Below the pieces are notes generated by a model that saw only the letters and a list, made by a program, of their open reading frames with translations, was not told the origin of the DNA and did no database searches. 44,850 nt of DNA from a virus: the IMG/VR virus record IMGVR_UViG_3300042756_000237. One strand, 5' to 3'. The position numbers and the translations under genes are program-made. Of the stretch, positions 2,909 through 25,656 are shown one piece after another; position 1 is the stretch's first letter, and each line of letters starts with the position of its first letter.

Positions 2909-3175
2909 ATGAAAGCACAAGTTACACCCGATCAAGTTAGCAACATAGGAAATAAAATTATTTCTCTAACAATTACAAATGGAAACGTTACTTATTATAT
3001 TGCAAAGTATTTTACTATGTTTGATGAATTTGTGGTTGTTACACGAAAAGGACTCACGGACTTTATTGTTCACAAGCCTGAACTAATCCCTTTCGTTGGA
3101 AAAAAGGGTATTCATTTTGAAAAATTCAAAACAGCCGTTCAAGCGTCGGACTTTATTAATAATTTAAGCATTTAA
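2909..3175 (+). CDS. Hypothetical protein
   Basis: 88-aa ORF, 20 nt downstream of the promoter box. Confidence 0.65.
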   Translation: MKAQVTPDQVSNIGNKIISLTITNGNVTYYIAKYFTMFDEFVVVTRKGLTDFIVHKPELIPFVGKKGIHFEKFKTAVQASDFINNLSI

Positions 3176-3178
3176 CAT

Positions 3179-3544
3179 ATGAAATGGACAGAATGTAAAC
3201 TAAGTATGCCAAATAACAACGCGGTTGTTGATGTTAAATTTATAACCGGACACATCATGAGAGCCGAATATGTCAACGGGAATTTTTATGAGGTGTGCGA
3301 AAATTCAAATATGGGAGGCTCAGAGCTTAAAAAATCATCAATAGTGGCATGGTCAAATGCGAATATGCCAAACATCAAAGAAATGACGGTTGAAGAATAC
3401 GCAAAACTTCGCGGAATAACCAAGGGAGCGGTAAGCCAATCCATGAAAGATGACAATCTACCCCCTGCCGTGACAAAAATCGACAAGCCAACCACGTATA
3501 TTTTGCACGTGGATATTGATGAACTTAATAGGTTGAAGAAATGA
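3179..3544 (+). CDS. Hypothetical protein with a probable C-terminal HTH
   Basis: The segment TVEEYAKLRGITKGAVSQSMKDDNLP resembles an excisionase/MerR-like helix-turn-helix. Confidence 0.6.
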   Translation: MKWTECKLSMPNNNAVVDVKFITGHIMRAEYVNGNFYEVCENSNMGGSELKKSSIVAWSNANMPNIKEMTVEEYAKLRGITKGAVSQSMKDDNLPPAVTKIDKPTTYILHVDIDELNRLKK

Positions 3545-4026
3545 GCAGAAGACTTGAAGTACTTAAAAATTCACTCGTTAAGAAAGAACAGGAATTGCAA
3601 CGTAGATTTGATGTTCATTTTGCAACAGTCAAACAAGCCAACGGACAGCCGCTAAACGACAAACGAAACGGACAAGCTACCATGAATAAATGGGAGCGTC
3701 AAGACAATGCAATCCGTACAGCAAAAGCAAGCGTTGAGAAAACAAAGAACGCCATTGAAAAAGAGGAAAGTAAAATATCAGGTGTTCAACACGCAAACAA
3801 TCATATTCCAAAAGAAATATTAGCACTTGTTGAATCAGGCGAATTGGTTCAATGGAGAAAACACCCAACACACTTTTTTGTTCCCGGAGTTGATAAGGCT
3901 CGGATTTGGTGGGATGAAAGCCGTAAATCTGTTGCTCATAAATATGCCCACTTAATTACCGAACAAGAACAACGAACTAAATTTGTCCGCTTATATAACG
4001 GACTTAACTCTATTTTAAACAAATAA
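3541..4026 (+). CDS. Hypothetical protein
   Basis: 161-aa ORF with an ATGA start/stop overlap. Confidence 0.65.
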   Translation: MSRRLEVLKNSLVKKEQELQRRFDVHFATVKQANGQPLNDKRNGQATMNKWERQDNAIRTAKASVEKTKNAIEKEESKISGVQHANNHIPKEILALVESGELVQWRKHPTHFFVPGVDKARIWWDESRKSVAHKYAHLITEQEQRTKFVRLYNGLNSILNK

Positions 4027-10948: not shown

Positions 10949-12115
10949 ATGGAAAAGAATGAAGTAGTAAAAATTACACCTGAATTACAGGAAGTAGTAA
11001 AAACAAGTGGATTGCCCGATTTAACGAAAGCCGAAAAAATAGCCTCAAATTACGCACCATTTTTTAATCAGGTTTCGGAGCAATCAGCCATTTTTAAACA
11101 GCTAAAAAAGGGTGTAAAAGAAGACGTTGAGAAAGCAAAAAGGGTGGTGATCGATCTTGGTCACATTGTATCAGACACCGAAGCGCAAAAGAAATTAGAT
11201 AAAGAAGTTTTGCTTATTGAAACCCGTTTTATTGACGCGCTAAATAATACCGTAGTAAATGCTGCCCGACTAACACAGGCAGAGGCAAAAGAGATAGTGA
11301 AGCACGAAGAAAATCTTGAAAAAGAGCGCATTCAACAGCTTCAAATTGACCGTGTAAATATGCTTACTCCATACTATGAAGAAGCGCACATGATGAATTT
11401 ATCAGGCATGGAAGAAGAAGTTTTTCAGGCTTATTTTGATAAGAAAAAACAAGATTTTGAATTTATTGAAGAGGCTAAAAAAGCTGCTGAAAAAAAACGT
11501 ATTGAGGACGAAAAGCAAGCCGATATTGAACGTATTGCCAAAGAAAAAGCGATTGCCTTACACAATGAACGTAAAGAAAAAATACTGCCGTTTTGGAATT
11601 TCATTCCTGCCGATAAAAGAGCTATGGACTTCTCAACGCTTACAGAAGAAGAATGGAATGAGCGTTTTGATTATTCGGTAAAAGAAAAAGAAAAATACGA
11701 TGCTGAACAAAAAAAGATAGCTGATGAAAACGAACGCCTTAAAAAAGAAGCAGAAGAACGGGAAGCAAAAGCCGAGGCAGAACGTAAAGAACAAGCTGAA
11801 ATTGACCGTAAAAAACAAGAAGAAACAAACCGATTAATTGCGGAAGAAAAAGCTAAATCGGAAGCATTGGAGGCTGAATTAAAAGCCAAAAAGGACGAAG
11901 AAGAACGCCTGAAAAAAGAACAACAGGATAAATTGGAAGCCGAAGAAAGGCAGCGTAAACAAGCTGAAAAAGCACCCGTAAAGGATAAAATGAAACTTTG
12001 GGTTGATTCATTTGCTTTGCCTGAAATCTCCGTACAAAATGAAATCACCACCGAGATAAAAGCCCGTCACGATGGATTTGTAAAGTGGGCTAAAGAACAG
12101 ATTGAAAAACTTTAA
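10949..12115 (+). CDS. Coiled-coil protein with a long Lys/Glu-rich segment
   Basis: 388-aa ORF with a low-complexity EAEEREAKAEAERKEQAEIDRKKQEE... region. Confidence 0.7.
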   Translation: MEKNEVVKITPELQEVVKTSGLPDLTKAEKIASNYAPFFNQVSEQSAIFKQLKKGVKEDVEKAKRVVIDLGHIVSDTEAQKKLDKEVLLIETRFIDALNNTVVNAARLTQAEAKEIVKHEENLEKERIQQLQIDRVNMLTPYYEEAHMMNLSGMEEEVFQAYFDKKKQDFEFIEEAKKAAEKKRIEDEKQADIERIAKEKAIALHNERKEKILPFWNFIPADKRAMDFSTLTEEEWNERFDYSVKEKEKYDAEQKKIADENERLKKEAEEREAKAEAERKEQAEIDRKKQEETNRLIAEEKAKSEALEAELKAKKDEEERLKKEQQDKLEAEERQRKQAEKAPVKDKMKLWVDSFALPEISVQNEITTEIKARHDGFVKWAKEQIEKL

Positions 12116-12119
12116 GACA

Positions 12120-12614
12120 ATGGCACATTGGAAAAAAAATAATGATTCTGCCTACATAAGTGGTGAGGATTTACAAACATCATTTAACGGACTAAAACCG
12201 GAAATGGTCGTTAAAATAACCAAGGTAAACGATGCTAAAACGTTTGACCAAAACAAGCAAGCCGAACAGGTTGTATCAGCTATTTACCTACAAGAAATAG
12301 GAGGTAAAGACCTTTATAAACCTGTTATTCTCAATAAAACAAACGGTAAGTTTCTATGCAAGGAATTTGCCGATACCGAAATGGATAATTGGCTAAATAA
12401 GCCCGTTGTTTTGTACGCTCAAAAAGATTCAAGACACGGCTACGTAGTGCGGTTCAAGACATTCAAAAAAATACATTTGGTTGCAGGTGATGAAAATTTC
12501 AACAAATGCAAAACGGCTATTCAAAAATCAGGATTCACAATTGACCAAATCAGAGAAAAATACGAAGTATCAACCGAAATAGAAAAACTTTTGACAGATG
12601 GAAAGGATATTTAA
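12120..12614 (+). CDS. Hypothetical protein
   Basis: First ATG of the TTG-initiated ORF 12102..12614. Confidence 0.6.
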   Translation: MAHWKKNNDSAYISGEDLQTSFNGLKPEMVVKITKVNDAKTFDQNKQAEQVVSAIYLQEIGGKDLYKPVILNKTNGKFLCKEFADTEMDNWLNKPVVLYAQKDSRHGYVVRFKTFKKIHLVAGDENFNKCKTAIQKSGFTIDQIREKYEVSTEIEKLLTDGKDI

Positions 12615-20018: not shown

Positions 20019-20810
20019 ATGCCGGAAATTTATTTTAAAGCATTCATTCGAGTTGTTAAATCAATTGCAGCTAAGGATGATCATCACACAGGACTTGATA
20101 CGGTTGAGGTTATTAGAGAGCCTTTAATTGTCGCTGAATCAAAAGATATGGTTAAGCAAATTTTACTTGAAAAATACCCTCAATTCTTTCAAAATGGAAA
20201 GGTTTATGAAAAGGAAACCAAAAACGATAAAGCGCAATTTTTTTACGTTGTGATATTTCCGTTGTATCAATACGAATTAGACGAAATAAATGAGGGCGAA
20301 TGGAAATGCGATTATTGCGGTCATGTACACCAAAACAAATATATTTCAAGACCCTTAAAAAGCCAAAAGTTTGAAGGAAAAATATTTTGTGGCAATGATT
20401 ACAAAACCGGAAATGACATAGTTACATTACCTGATTGTTACGAAAATTTTAAACGCAGTTACTTTAAAAATGTAGATTTTCCTGATGATTTGAATTACAT
20501 AAATGCAGATAGTCCGGTTTATATTTACAAGATTACCGAAAAATCAACAGCTAAATGTTATGTGGGTAAAACTAAAAACGCACCGTTCTTTCGTTGGTGG
20601 AACCATTTAAAACACAGTAAAACACCGTTTGGCTTATACATTAGAGCGACAAAGTTAAGCGGTTGGAGTTTTGAGGTTTTGGAAGAGCTACCAAGTAATA
20701 TTTCAGACACCGAAGTATTTTCGATTGAATCAAAGTACATACGTGAATTTAATTCGATTGAAAACGGATATAATTCAGTAATAAGCAATAAAAATGAGCG
20801 GTTGGATTAA
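20019..20810 (+). CDS. GIY-YIG nuclease-domain protein with an N-terminal extension containing CxxC
   Basis: The C-terminal domain VYIYKI..KCYVGKT..R..H...E.KYIREF..ENGYN matches GIY-YIG. Confidence 0.7.
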   Translation: MPEIYFKAFIRVVKSIAAKDDHHTGLDTVEVIREPLIVAESKDMVKQILLEKYPQFFQNGKVYEKETKNDKAQFFYVVIFPLYQYELDEINEGEWKCDYCGHVHQNKYISRPLKSQKFEGKIFCGNDYKTGNDIVTLPDCYENFKRSYFKNVDFPDDLNYINADSPVYIYKITEKSTAKCYVGKTKNAPFFRWWNHLKHSKTPFGLYIRATKLSGWSFEVLEELPSNISDTEVFSIESKYIREFNSIENGYNSVISNKNERLD

Positions 20811-22584: not shown

Positions 22585-23232
22585 ATGTACGACAAAATGA
22601 ATAAATTAACACAAGAACTAACTAGACAATTTAATGTCCATATGTTTGATTTTCTAATTGGAAGAAGACATATGAAACGCGAAATAACTGAACTATTCAA
22701 CTCTCTTCTTATGAAAATACACAGGACAGAGGTGGCGATATGTGGGTATGTCAAAAGAGATATAAGCCAAAGAGCCGATAAGTACAGGATATCCATAGAA
22801 AATGAAAATATCGAACTATCTTTTTCCATAAATAAAAACCTAACATCTGTTTTAGAGTTTCGATTTATAGAAACTAAAAAGTGCCTTTTTCAGGATAATT
22901 TTATAGAAAGACATGTTGATCTACAAAGAGATAAATACGTTTACTTTCTAAAATCCGACTTTGGATTTAAGATAGGAAAAACAAAAGATTTATCGAAAAG
23001 AAAAAACATTTTTGACGTTAGGCTTCCTTTTAAAACAGAGGTTTACGCATATATTTTAACTAAAAAAATGAATGAGTGCGAGCTGTTTTTTCACGACATA
23101 CTAAAGGAAAGAAGGATAAATGGCGAGTGGTTTGATTTGACAGAAAAAGATTTTATTACAATACAAGCCCTATCAAGGGAGTGGGGTAAGTTTATAAAAT
23201 ACACTCCAAAAAAAGAACATGAACAACTTTAA
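22585..23232 (+). CDS. T5orf172 (MUG113, GIY-YIG-superfamily) domain protein
   Basis: C-terminal YVYFLKSDFGFKIGKTKDLSKR...ECELFFHDILKERRINGEWFDL matches the T5orf172 pattern. Confidence 0.7.
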   Translation: MYDKMNKLTQELTRQFNVHMFDFLIGRRHMKREITELFNSLLMKIHRTEVAICGYVKRDISQRADKYRISIENENIELSFSINKNLTSVLEFRFIETKKCLFQDNFIERHVDLQRDKYVYFLKSDFGFKIGKTKDLSKRKNIFDVRLPFKTEVYAYILTKKMNECELFFHDILKERRINGEWFDLTEKDFITIQALSREWGKFIKYTPKKEHEQL

Positions 23233-23599: not shown

Positions 23600-23716
23600 A
23601 GAACTGTTTTGGTGCGCGGTCAAGGTTATTGCGGTAATCTTGGTGCTTAGTTTTGTTTTGCCCGTAGCAACTAAGGCTAAAATTTACTTTCATAATTATT
23701 ACTACAACAATAAATA
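23576..23716 (+). CDS. Small single-pass membrane protein (46 aa, not in the ORF track)
   Basis: Hand translation gives MKAPQTYKELFWCAVKVIAVILVLSFVLPVATKAKIYFHNYYYNNK. Confidence 0.4.
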
Positions 23717-23760
23717 AAGCCCAATCCGTTAGGGCATGGTGATAACGGAAATAAATTGCA

Positions 23761-23801
23761 AGCCCTCCCGAATACGTGTTCTTAGGGAGGGTTAATTTTT
23801 T
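23761..23801 (+). terminator. Intrinsic terminator
   Basis: ccctccc (23763-69) pairs with gggaggg (23785-91), followed by ttaatttttt. Confidence 0.75.
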
Positions 23802-23806
23802 GAGAT

Positions 23807-23938
23807 ATGAGCGGAGTAATGCCTTGGGAAGAAGAAAACGAATGCGAAGAATGTGGACTAAAAAACACCTCTTTAATTGATGGTTTGTGTATTCATTGCA
23901 CAGGCGAAAAAGAAATGATAGAAGAAGATTTTGGATAA
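23807..23938 (+). CDS. Small zinc-ribbon protein (43 aa, not in the ORF track)
   Basis: Hand translation gives MSGVMPWEEENECEECGLKNTSLIDGLCIHCTGEKEMIEEDFG, with CxxC..CxxC. Confidence 0.4.
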   Translation: MSGVMPWEEENECEECGLKNTSLIDGLCIHCTGEKEMIEEDFG

Positions 23939-23978
23939 ACAATAGTCTTTCGGTGTTGGGTTAACCGAGTGAAAGAGT

Positions 23979-24410
23979 ATGAATAATTGGTTTACAGTAA
24001 AAGTAAAGTACACAAAACAGCTTGAAAACGGAGCATTCAAACGGGTTTCAGAGCCTTATTTGTTAGCTGCAATGACATTCACCGATGCTGAAGCGCGGAT
24101 TTATGAAGAATTGGGTTCCGTAATTCGCGGTGAGTTTGTAGTAACGAATATTGCCCGTACGGATTTTCATGATATTTTCCATTATGGGGACAGCGATATT
24201 TGGTTTAAATGCAAAATATCCTACGATTCAAATGATGGCGATTCAGAGCGTAAAAAACGAATTTCGCAAAATTTCCTTGTTTCTGCACACACAGTTAAAG
24301 AAGCAAGCGAAAGACTTCTTGAATCCCTATCAACATTAATAGTAGATTTCAAAGTTAATTCAGTTATTGAAACAGCAATAGTTGATATTTTTCCCTTTAA
24401 TCAGGAATAA
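23979..24410 (+). CDS. DUF4494-like protein
   Basis: The N-terminus WFTVKVKYTKQLENGAFKRVSEPYLLAAMTFTDAEARIYEELG matches the family pattern as I remember it from Bacteroidota and their phages. Confidence 0.6.
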   Translation: MNNWFTVKVKYTKQLENGAFKRVSEPYLLAAMTFTDAEARIYEELGSVIRGEFVVTNIARTDFHDIFHYGDSDIWFKCKISYDSNDGDSERKKRISQNFLVSAHTVKEASERLLESLSTLIVDFKVNSVIETAIVDIFPFNQE

Positions 24411-24414
24411 TTCG

Positions 24415-24422
24415 TATCTTTG
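24415..24422 (+). promoter_or_regulatory. -7 box TATCTTTG heading the noncoding tRNA-like unit
   Basis: Matches TAnnTTTG. There is no ORF before the terminator at 24764. Confidence 0.5.
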
Positions 24423-24555
24423 AATCTGTTAAACTTTTAGGTAATTCCCGTACGTCATTGGTTTGGTTTACGGGAACAAAGCTAGCCTCCCAGTGATTGA
24501 CCCCTAAGTACACAGGGTAAGAGGTCGTAAGTCAACCGCGTAAGAGTTGACAAAT

Positions 24556-24628
24556 GCGTGGATAGCTCAGTTGGTAGAGCGTTGGTTTGAAAAGCCAAAG
24601 AGAGGGTTCGATTCCCTAACTCGCACAC
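24556..24628 (+). tRNA. tRNA-Phe(GAA)-like element with a defective acceptor and T stem (possibly a pseudo-tRNA)
   Basis: Canonical TA-GCTC-AGTTGGTA-GAGC D arm. Anticodon arm ttggt-TTGAAAA-gccaa. T loop GGG-TTCGATT-CCC. Only about 4 of 7 acceptor pairs form and the variable region is short. Confidence 0.55.
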
Positions 24629-24637
24629 CCATAAATA

Positions 24638-24747
24638 GAATGGTTTGATTTGAGTTTTAGCAGGGCATCCAATCGGTTCACGCGAAATAAAACCGATAAT
24701 TATATGGTGGGTTTCGCGCAGGGTTCAAGTTAGTAACAAAACCATTC
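24638..24747 (+). ncRNA. Structured trailer RNA with predicted H-type pseudoknot
   Basis: 9-bp closing helix gaatggttt (24638-46) with aaaccattc (24739-47). Stem atcggtt (24672-78) with aaccgat (24691-97). Its loop cgcgaaa (24681-87) pairs with tttcgcg (24712-18). Confidence 0.4.
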
Positions 24748-24763
24748 GCTTGTAAGTAGAAGA

Positions 24764-24799
24764 AAACCCCGTTCAGAAATGTTCGGGGTTTGTTGTTTA
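24764..24799 (+). terminator. Intrinsic terminator
   Basis: aaaccccg (24764-71) pairs with cggggttt (24784-91), followed by gttgttt. Confidence 0.75.
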
Positions 24800-24847
24800 G
24801 AATCATTATATATTACATCAATCAGCACCACAATTGAAATTTATTGC

Positions 24848-24855
24848 TATATTTG
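24848..24855 (+). promoter_or_regulatory. -7 box TATATTTG for the moron gene
   Basis: Matches TAnnTTTG, 63 nt upstream of the ATG at 24919. Confidence 0.5.
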
Positions 24856-24918
24856 ATGTTCAAATTATTTTTAACTAAAAATCATTTATTATGAAAAAAA
24901 ATTAGTAGATTTATCGCC

Positions 24919-25281
24919 ATGAAACAATTGTTAATTGCATTTCTGTTTTTCGGATTAATTTCGACATTCAGCATCGGACACGCAAATATTCCGGTGGCAC
25001 AGAACAAGGATTTTGTTACGCAGATTGATGACGGTTTGACCGTTGTTGATTTGGTTACTGAAAGCCAATTTGCAAACAATGAAGCGTTGATAACTTCGGA
25101 TAACCGAGCAACTGACTTTGTTGTCATTGAAATTAACCATTTTCCCGACATCAGGAATATGGCGGAACTAAATTACTTACCGGGTACATTCTTACCTATT
25201 TTAAAAGTTCCGTTGACTTCCAGTCTGATCCAATCCAATTATCTAAAGCGACCGGGTTGGTGTAGTTTCGAAACGAATTAA
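24919..25281 (+). CDS. Secreted protein with a signal peptide (moron)
   Basis: The N-terminus MKQLLIAFLFFGLISTFSIGHA is signal-peptide-like. The gene is bracketed by its own promoter and terminator. Confidence 0.7.
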   Translation: MKQLLIAFLFFGLISTFSIGHANIPVAQNKDFVTQIDDGLTVVDLVTESQFANNEALITSDNRATDFVVIEINHFPDIRNMAELNYLPGTFLPILKVPLTSSLIQSNYLKRPGWCSFETN

Positions 25282-25482: not shown

Positions 25483-25656
25483 ATGAATGACAAGGAATTT
25501 GAACTACTCAAAAAGTACATGAATTATATTGATGAAATAGAAAGCGTCACCTATGTTGATACGTTTGACCGTGACGCTGAAAACAGAATGAAAGAAAAAT
25601 TTACAGAGCATGAAAAAATAGTTTTACAGGAAATATCAAAATCACTTCAACAATGA
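25483..25656 (+). CDS. Hypothetical small protein, first gene of the late operon
   Basis: In-frame ATG of ORF 25447..25656 that lies outside the terminator hairpin. Confidence 0.55.
   Translation: MNDKEFELLKKYMNYIDEIESVTYVDTFDRDAENRMKEKFTEHEKIVLQEISKSLQQ

Follow-up and report, generated by a model that had tools for sequence, protein, structure and literature searches.

A candidate non-canonical tRNA-Phe(GAA) gene with a structured 3′ trailer in a stand-alone viral transcription unit

Phage tRNA genes belong to the Rfam family RF00005 and can, like the tRNA-Tyr gene of T5, have a promoter of their own; phage tRNAs made from their own strong promoter overcome defence systems that degrade tRNAs (PMC11555353). 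In the TMERs of MHV68, stem-loops follow a viral tRNA-like element, and tRNase Z does the cutting (PMC4838037). A small-RNA sponge has been described in E. coli that derives from the 3′ external transcribed spacer of a tRNA operon (PMC6191717), and bipartite RNase III substrates have a bulge that restricts cleavage to a single strand, so that a protective hairpin stays at the 3′ end (PMC1540722). Here we describe a noncoding unit of ~380 nt (24415-24799) in the IMG/VR virus record IMGVR_UViG_3300042756_000237, whose whole analysed stretch of 44,850 nt we call the window. The unit holds a tRNA-Phe(GAA) with acceptor mismatches that are conserved in a second phage, followed by a trailer hairpin whose base is also conserved. 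With a probability of roughly 0.55, we read it as a monocistronic gene from which the phage makes a tRNA-Phe(GAA) that works in spite of its non-canonical form, and which has a structured 3′ trailer.

The element is recognized as the sole tRNA of the window by ARAGORN, which calls it tRNA-Phe(GAA), and RF00005 is the sole Rfam family above threshold in the window, with 46.4 bits where the gathering score is 29. An earlier reading made from the letters of the window (the sequence-only reading) had picked out a D arm, an anticodon arm with GAA and a T arm, all of which are present. The homologous element in the Logan contig L029 scores 50.6 bits against RF00005 and is also called tRNA-Phe(GAA) by ARAGORN. 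Infernal scores for the other tRNAs in the phage contigs that we fetched span 32-71 bits, which makes 46-51 bits low but not an outlier.

In the Rfam register, four of the seven acceptor pairs are standard, U4.U69, G6.A67 and A7.A66 being the exceptions, and the T stem has 4 bp with one pair deleted. The ARAGORN register lies one base over (U1-A72) and gives five standard acceptor pairs out of seven; the connector to the D stem is then 3 nt long, as is the variable loop, and the T stem contains a G.A mismatch. Overall, the variable loop is 3-4 nt. Whichever way the stack of acceptor and T stems is split, it has 12 layers, three of them non-standard, and a division into 8 + 4 is also possible. 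Neither the window nor L029 has an acceptor with seven standard pairs. The sequence-only reading had listed the same defects (about 4 of 7 acceptor pairs, four good T-stem pairs and a variable region of 3-4 nt), and these match the Rfam alignment. It had also held that this is not an ordinary phage tRNA, a view borne out by the other tRNAs in the fetched phage contigs, of which 17/17 have fully paired (7/7) acceptors; the mismatches are unique among the 19 tRNAs compared.

The invariant nucleotides of a tRNA can be read (U8, A14, G18G19, U33, GAA followed by A37A38, G53-C61, U59 and U60). The T loop is TTCGATT, and the T stem has four standard pairs plus G.A, which is A.A in L029. The identity of E. 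coli tRNA-Phe lies in the anticodon GAA, A73, U20, U59 and U60. In the Rfam alignment the element has GAA and the tRNA-Phe-typical U20, U59 and U60, with A/G instead of G/U at positions 44/45; the Rfam register makes the discriminator A73, the ARAGORN register C73. CCA is not encoded, the acceptor strand being followed by ACACCC in the window and ACAAGC in L029. We treat as chance another candidate for the 3′ acceptor strand, TTCACGC at 24677-83, which could pair with GCGTGGA along its whole length but has no equivalent in L029. A search of leader and trailer for a further degenerate tRNA gave no match at E up to 10.

L029 is the sole informative relative and was reached through the 120-aa protein encoded downstream of the unit (78% protein identity). 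It is mosaic, with an upstream gene and a terminase that differ from those of the window. From the promoter box through the genes downstream of the unit the two share 80-92% nucleotide identity, except that the middle of the leader and the apex of the trailer cannot be aligned. The tRNA itself is ~92% identical (~5 differing positions), compared with unalignable immediate flanks and 80% identity in the next gene. No difference is seen in the acceptor strands with their mismatches, in the anticodon arm or in the T loop. A D-stem C-G pair is U-A in L029 (a double change) and a T-stem A-U is G.U, and no pair is broken; the D loop is one base different in length with its GG kept, and the variable region of L029 has one extra base. 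In this comparison of two sequences, the changes are compatible with the cloverleaf and identity exceeds that of the flanks, which argues that the tRNA fold is under selection rather than decaying as a pseudogene.

Compared with other phage tRNA genes, the unit is alike in its above-threshold cloverleaf, its canonical anticodon and T loops, its own promoter and its site, which tRNA genes of related contigs share, between early genes and the packaging module. It differs in having a short variable loop, two or three non-standard acceptor pairs and a T stem of 4 bp (5 if the mismatch is counted), all conserved in L029. Most phage tRNAs sit in tightly packed arrays, whereas here a 130-nt leader and a 135-nt structured trailer surround the tRNA. 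Non-canonical tRNAs with an 8/4 partition of acceptor and T stems are known as tRNA-Sec-like 'allo-tRNAs'. The present element can be read in the same way, with eight layers from U24555-A24625 to A24562.A24618 and four T-stem pairs making 12 in total. Unlike allo-tRNAs, it lacks a long variable arm, two of its eight acceptor layers are purine-purine, and it has the anticodon and identity nucleotides of an ordinary tRNA-Phe.

The trailer is built on two helices, P1 and P2, separated on the 3′ side by a 7-nt bulge. P1 is the 9-bp closing helix proposed in the sequence-only reading; it is present, and its counterpart in L029 (GAAGTTCTTT/AAAGAACTTC) has undergone compensatory change, the middle TGG/CCA being replaced by GTTC/GAAC such that 3-4 pairs are swapped on both strands. 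The first 5 pairs of P2 have the same sequence in L029, and the next ~5 differ and are still paired. These helices were compared by hand; MAFFT failed to align the trailer in structural register. The P1-bulge-P2 stem is the feature of the trailer flank that has comparative support, and it appears to have been kept through compensatory changes. A 9-bp trailer helix occurs in 3% of dinucleotide shuffles, and the folding energy has z = -1.20 for the trailer and z = -1.23 for the whole unit. Above P2, the apex comprises 61 nt in the window and ~140 unrelated nt in L029. The pseudoknot that had been proposed here did not hold up: its strands are perfect complements (7 bp in the first stem, CGCGAAA/TTTCGCG in the second), but L029 is unrelated at this place and the two 7-bp stems show no excess over shuffles once the 9-bp helix is set aside.

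A scan of Rfam 15 with window positions 24300-24950 and L029 positions 3140-3620 returned nothing better than E = 0.14 for leader or trailer and no weak match common to both; a permissive scan of 24300-24950 found, besides the tRNA, nothing better than E = 0.86. Antisense targets within the phage genome were considered and dropped, there being no complementarity of at least 14 nt. The bulge together with the first A's of the P1 3′ strand (24732-24740, AGTAACAAA; L029 3517-3525, AGCAGCAAA) can pair, using G.U pairs, with the invariant terminator tail TTTGTTGTT (24789-24797), a pairing that would be in competition with P1. Both phages could form it, but it is probably due to chance, as it joins an A-rich to a U/G-rich stretch. 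In the related phage L007 a strong hairpin also follows a tRNA; such hairpins are not unique to this unit, and the one in the window may therefore be a mere stabiliser or a terminator-like element.

Three described systems offer points of comparison for this trailer. With the MHV68 TMERs the unit shares its layout as read from sequence, an imperfect viral tRNA-like element directly before a long hairpin in one short transcript. TMERs differ in being transcripts of a eukaryotic RNA polymerase III with hairpins that are microRNA precursors, a pathway that bacteria do not have. Like the spacer RNAs of tRNA operons, the structured 3′ trailer ends at the terminator of the operon and would be freed by 3′ processing of the tRNA; here, by contrast, no target complementarity was found and the apex is not conserved. 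To our knowledge, Bacteroidota lack the Hfq-dependent system involved in the E. coli spacer small RNAs. The lower stem of 9-10 bp, the asymmetric 7-nt 3′ bulge and the upper stem of 10-12 bp recall RNase III hairpins of the T7 type (PMC1540722), which have a small loop in place of the large, variable apical domain of 60-140 nt seen here. By analogy with them, P1-bulge-P2 might act as an RNase III-type substrate.

The coordinates of all features are collected in Table 1. The unit lies in a noncoding stretch (24411-24918) between a DUF4494 gene (23979-24410) and a gene for a 120-aa protein with a signal peptide (24919-25281), which is followed by the genes for the small terminase, large terminase and portal; the tRNA unit is 1.2 kb upstream of the terminase genes. 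No open reading frame (ORF) of at least 60 aa occurs in 24411-24918. The only frames there are 48 aa or shorter and overlap the tRNA or the hairpins, and since none is kept in L029 we rejected a small protein gene inside the unit.

Table 1. Features of the tRNA unit in the window, with their counterparts in L029.
Feature	Position	Strand	Basis and L029 counterpart
Promoter -7 box TATCTTTG, Bacteroidota type (consensus TAnnTTTG)	24415..24422	+	Read from sequence; counterpart TATTTTTG in L029
5′ leader, variable part, including 8-bp hairpin 24445-52/24469-76	24423..24530	+	Complement present; absent from L029
tRNA-proximal hairpin GTCAAC(9 nt)GTTGAC, then AAAU	24531..24555	+	Read from sequence; CCCAC(12 nt)GTGGG then UAAAU in L029
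Non-canonical tRNA-Phe(GAA)	24556..24625 (Rfam register); 24555-24626 (ARAGORN register)	+	ARAGORN; Rfam RF00005
Trailer helix P1, 5′ strand GAATGGTTT	24638..24646	+	Perfect pairing with 24739-47
Trailer helix P2, 5′ strand	24647..24658	+	Pairs with 24720-31 in the minimum-energy fold
Variable trailer apex, with proposed pseudoknot 24672-78/24691-97 + 24681-87/24712-18	24659..24719	+	Complements exist; L029 unrelated
Trailer helix P2, 3′ strand	24720..24731	+	Pairs with 24647-58
7-nt 3′ bulge AGTAACA between P2 and P1	24732..24738	+	AGCAGCA in L029; consensus AGYARCA
Trailer helix P1, 3′ strand AAACCATTC	24739..24747	+	Pairs with 24638-46
Intrinsic terminator: hairpin AAACCCCG...CGGGGTTT, U.U/U.U internal loop, GAAA loop, tail TTTGTTGTTT	24764..24799	+	Perfect-complement stem; near-identical in L029

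The L029 box TATTTTTG has a good TTTG element 19 nt upstream; the window's own -33 element is poor. After the box, GAA(A)TCTGTTA...TTAGGTA is conserved between the two phages, the first ~25 transcribed bases being kept. The motif TANNTTTG is enriched in the window (90 matches vs 62.5 +/- 8.7 in shuffles), and TATATTTG is repeated at intergenic plus-strand positions that include 933, 2337, 10513, 16287, 19857, 24848, 25337 and 25366, among others. These recurrences are probably phage promoters read by a host Bacteroidota sigma factor. The box at 24848 belongs to the next gene and is conserved in L029.

At the other end of the unit stands a G+C-rich hairpin, with a perfectly complementary stem (24764-71/24784-91) and a U-rich tail broken by a G. 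A simple terminator scan did not list 24764-99, likely because the 2x2 U.U internal loop left only the outer stem to be counted and pushed the loop beyond the scan's 8-nt limit. The terminator contains a 22-mer, CCCCGTTCAGAAATGTTCGGGG (24767-24788), made of five G-C pairs, the U.U/U.U internal loop, two pairs and the GAAA loop. The exact 22-mer occurs in four unrelated viral contigs (L030 13697-13718; L031 11494-11515, minus strand; L032 594-615; L033 14068-14089, minus strand), with T runs after it wherever the downstream sequence was read, and in four bacterial genomes (L034-L037), again with T runs after it. Where it occurs in Bacteroidota and Balneolaceae genomes, it follows coding genes and, in one genome, 5S rRNA. 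Its position after genes of the host phylum, with the T runs, supports both a terminator role and a Bacteroidota-type host. In three of the viral contigs, the 22-mer is located 10-15 nt upstream of a tRNA array that opens with tRNA-Pro(TGG). Even its loop is exactly conserved across such differing contexts.

With its own promoter, its own terminator and a separate promoter for the next gene, the tRNA unit is bounded on its own. The sequence-only reading had described a stand-alone noncoding unit running from promoter box to terminator, and this stands, box, tRNA and terminator all being conserved in L029. Every sequence feature that it listed is present at the place where it put it. Of the helices that it named in the leader, the 8-bp hairpin is not supported: it is there but is absent from L029, and an inverted repeat of that length arises in 12% of dinucleotide shuffles; the stem next to the tRNA (24531-36/24546-51), on the other hand, is kept. 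A small hairpin lies directly 5′ of the tRNA in both phages, with a stem that differs in sequence and an invariant AAAU after it. The leader as a whole is ~129 nt long in the window vs ~57 nt in L029, its middle is unalignable, and its folding energy against dinucleotide shuffles has z = -1.27. A well-paired acceptor, combined with flanking helices that show no covariation, would have spoken against the sequence-only reading; what we find is a poorly paired acceptor and compensatory changes in P1 and P2, alongside a leader hairpin and pseudoknot that are not conserved.

From these features we infer a route by which the transcript would be processed, charged with phenylalanine and used in translation. 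Transcription would start a few bases past the TAnnTTTG box and give a precursor with a leader of ~130 nt that ends in the small hairpin and AAAU. RNase P would cut after U24555 or one base earlier. The AAAU before G+1 supplies U(-1) and A(-2), both of which are favoured by bacterial RNase P (PMC5602109), and the conserved leader end thus appears to suit this enzyme. An endonuclease such as RNase Z would cut after the discriminator and a host enzyme would add CCA, two steps that we propose because the gene does not encode CCA. In the infected cell, the tRNA would then supplement or replace the single tRNA-Phe species of the host; 5.3% of the phage's codons are Phe codons. The trailer of ~135 nt would fold as a long hairpin with a bulge, and an ordinary intrinsic terminator would come after it. 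The hairpin may protect the 3′ end of the precursor, or serve as a double-strand-specific processing site and be released as a by-product.

Several observations weigh against a working tRNA gene. Three of the 12 layers in the acceptor/T stack are non-standard, the variable loop has 3-4 nt, and ARAGORN places a 3-nt connector before the D stem; the acceptor mismatches are found in none of the 17 other phage tRNAs. The mismatches sit at places where a tRNA is touched by EF-Tu and by processing enzymes, and they could therefore hamper charging or delivery. Two registers are possible, which leaves the discriminator as either A73 or C73. With two sequences to compare, the identity of the acceptor strands could partly reflect recent common ancestry. 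Finally, a tRNA gene by itself gives no reason for the conserved base of the trailer hairpin.

These points leave room for a bacterial-virus counterpart of tRNA-linked noncoding RNAs, a tentative and on balance doubtful proposal in which a conserved, imperfect tRNA-Phe look-alike would serve translation only in part or not at all and would act as a decoy, as an RNase P/RNase Z handle for the trailer hairpin, or as both. As a decoy or a means of defence evasion, which we think rather unlikely, the element would keep its anticodon arm and elbow on a weak acceptor that makes it a poor substrate for translation, and would soak up or resist a host nuclease or modifier that targets tRNAs. That the acceptor/T-stem mismatches are unchanged in both phages while other positions vary, and have no match among the tRNAs compared, agrees with such a role, as does the unit's own promoter. 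We know of no defence nuclease specific for tRNA-Phe, however, and the element has a wholly canonical anticodon loop and is accepted by standard tRNA finders. Phage tRNAs that beat tRNA-degrading defence from their own promoter are a precedent (PMC11555353), but the reported cases of evasion act via functional tRNAs and not dead ones. The handle version, in which RNase P and RNase Z, brought in by the tRNA-like element, would free a trailer of ~170 nt (bulged hairpin plus terminator hairpin) as a small or protein-binding RNA, we judge to be unlikely. It would account for the basal ~20 bp and the 7-nt bulge, kept via compensatory changes in P1 and P2 that have a probability of ~1e-4 by chance on a rough estimate; perfect inverted repeats of 9 and 10 bp are found in 3% and 1.2% of shuffles, and a defective tRNA followed by a hairpin resembles the TMERs (PMC4838037). 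Yet the apex, the expected seat of a specific function, differs wholly in sequence and length between the phages, the phage genome offers no complementarity of at least 14 nt, no Rfam family matches the trailer of either copy, and strong hairpins follow phage tRNAs elsewhere (L007). Template switching at the DNA level can, moreover, keep hairpin arms complementary without selection on the RNA.

A decaying tRNA pseudogene without present function, stranded in a mosaic and fast-changing intergenic region, is distinctly unlikely. The lowish Infernal score with three non-standard stack layers, the flanks scrambled by insertions and deletions and the homing-endonuclease-like genes of the region would all suit decay, but the tRNA is ~92% identical beside unalignable flanks and an 80% identical neighbour gene, the changes observed in it are compensatory or compatible, and promoter, AAAU leader and terminator have been retained. 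Highly improbable is an element acting at the DNA level, either an integration site (attP) that includes a copied host tRNA or a site for packaging or recombination to which the inverted repeat would be the signpost. Overlap with tRNA genes is common among phage attachment sites, and the unit's place 1.2 kb upstream of the terminase genes would fit. Against this, no integrase domain was found among the larger ORFs scanned, which led us to drop an attachment site; the tRNA is full-length with its own promoter and terminator, and the D-stem pair has changed in a compensatory way, which speaks for constraint at the RNA level. A working, non-canonical tRNA-Phe gene is the reading that we favour over all of these.

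The carrier is most likely an uncultured phage of ~45 kb that infects Flavobacteriales, judging from its encoded proteins. Cellular homologues of the DUF4494 protein reach 84% identity in Crocinitomicaceae and other Flavobacteriia, and the nearest terminases of cultured phages, from Riemerella, Nonlabens and Olleya phages, are ~37% identical. Beyond L029, the search for further copies of the cassette yielded none. It is absent from 14 IMG/VR loci that share DUF4494 (53-71% identity), where other genes lie directly downstream and some loci have ordinary tRNAs nearby, and from three Logan contigs with a DUF4494 relative. Look-ups by exact protein brought back nothing but identical copies of this phage and contigs that stop short of the unit. 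When exact DNA seeds taken from the tRNA, trailer and terminator were run against viral contigs and in one metagenome scan and one genome scan, they gave nothing or chance coding matches as far as relatives of the cassette are concerned. GenBank phages matched by generic tRNA-Phe similarity only. The related phages L003 and L007 have tRNA genes at the same junction between early and packaging genes. That of L003 (3497-3579), 83 nt in length and with a long variable arm, comes directly after the DUF4494 homologue. It is Tyr with anticodon ATA according to ARAGORN and scores only 40.3 bits with Rfam, another atypical tRNA at the same junction.

Other features were noted around the unit. Homing-endonuclease-like domains (GIY-YIG; T5orf172/MUG113) are encoded at 20019-20810 and 22585-23232, just upstream of the tRNA region, and these two genes fit a mosaic, insertion-prone part of the genome. 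A second gap without a long ORF spans 379 nt (23600-23978) and includes a 43-aa frame at 23807-23938 that has two CxxC motifs and looks like a small zinc-ribbon protein. The DUF4494 protein has 143 aa, and its closest homologues are cellular proteins of 190-214 aa from large Bacteroidota contigs, which suggests a host-derived gene that lost a C-terminal extension. Downstream, L029 lacks most of a 69-aa ORF (window 25487-25653 vs L029 4146-4149), the first ~13 codons of which are fused there to a homologue of a 116-aa gene. A break ~86 nt upstream of the small terminase gene is also seen in several metagenome contigs from the phage of the window, suggesting strain-level variation there. Among the viral contigs with the shared terminator, L033 also carries a tmRNA gene (12016-12331, minus strand; RF00023, 71.4 bits). 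In L030 (13540-13696) and L032 (440-593), ~110 nt of noncoding sequence separate a TAnnTTTG-like box from the terminator and have a motif in common, GGGGATATTGTGTTTAATAGAT in L030 and GGGGCTGTATTGTGCTTAAACGAT in L032; these stretches might represent a small RNA ahead of the tRNA arrays. The trailer of the window has no homology to the noncoding stretches before this terminator in L030-L033 beyond the terminator itself.

If the unit is a plain tRNA gene, it adds one more tRNA supplied by a phage, and it would mean that selection can keep three non-standard acceptor/T layers, which is useful for the pseudogene filters applied in phage annotation. The unit is small (~380 nt) and self-contained and can thus be tested directly in a Flavobacterium host. 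Should it be true that the imperfect acceptor or the trailer hairpin has a function of its own, this would be the first tRNA-linked regulatory or anti-defence RNA from a Bacteroidota phage.

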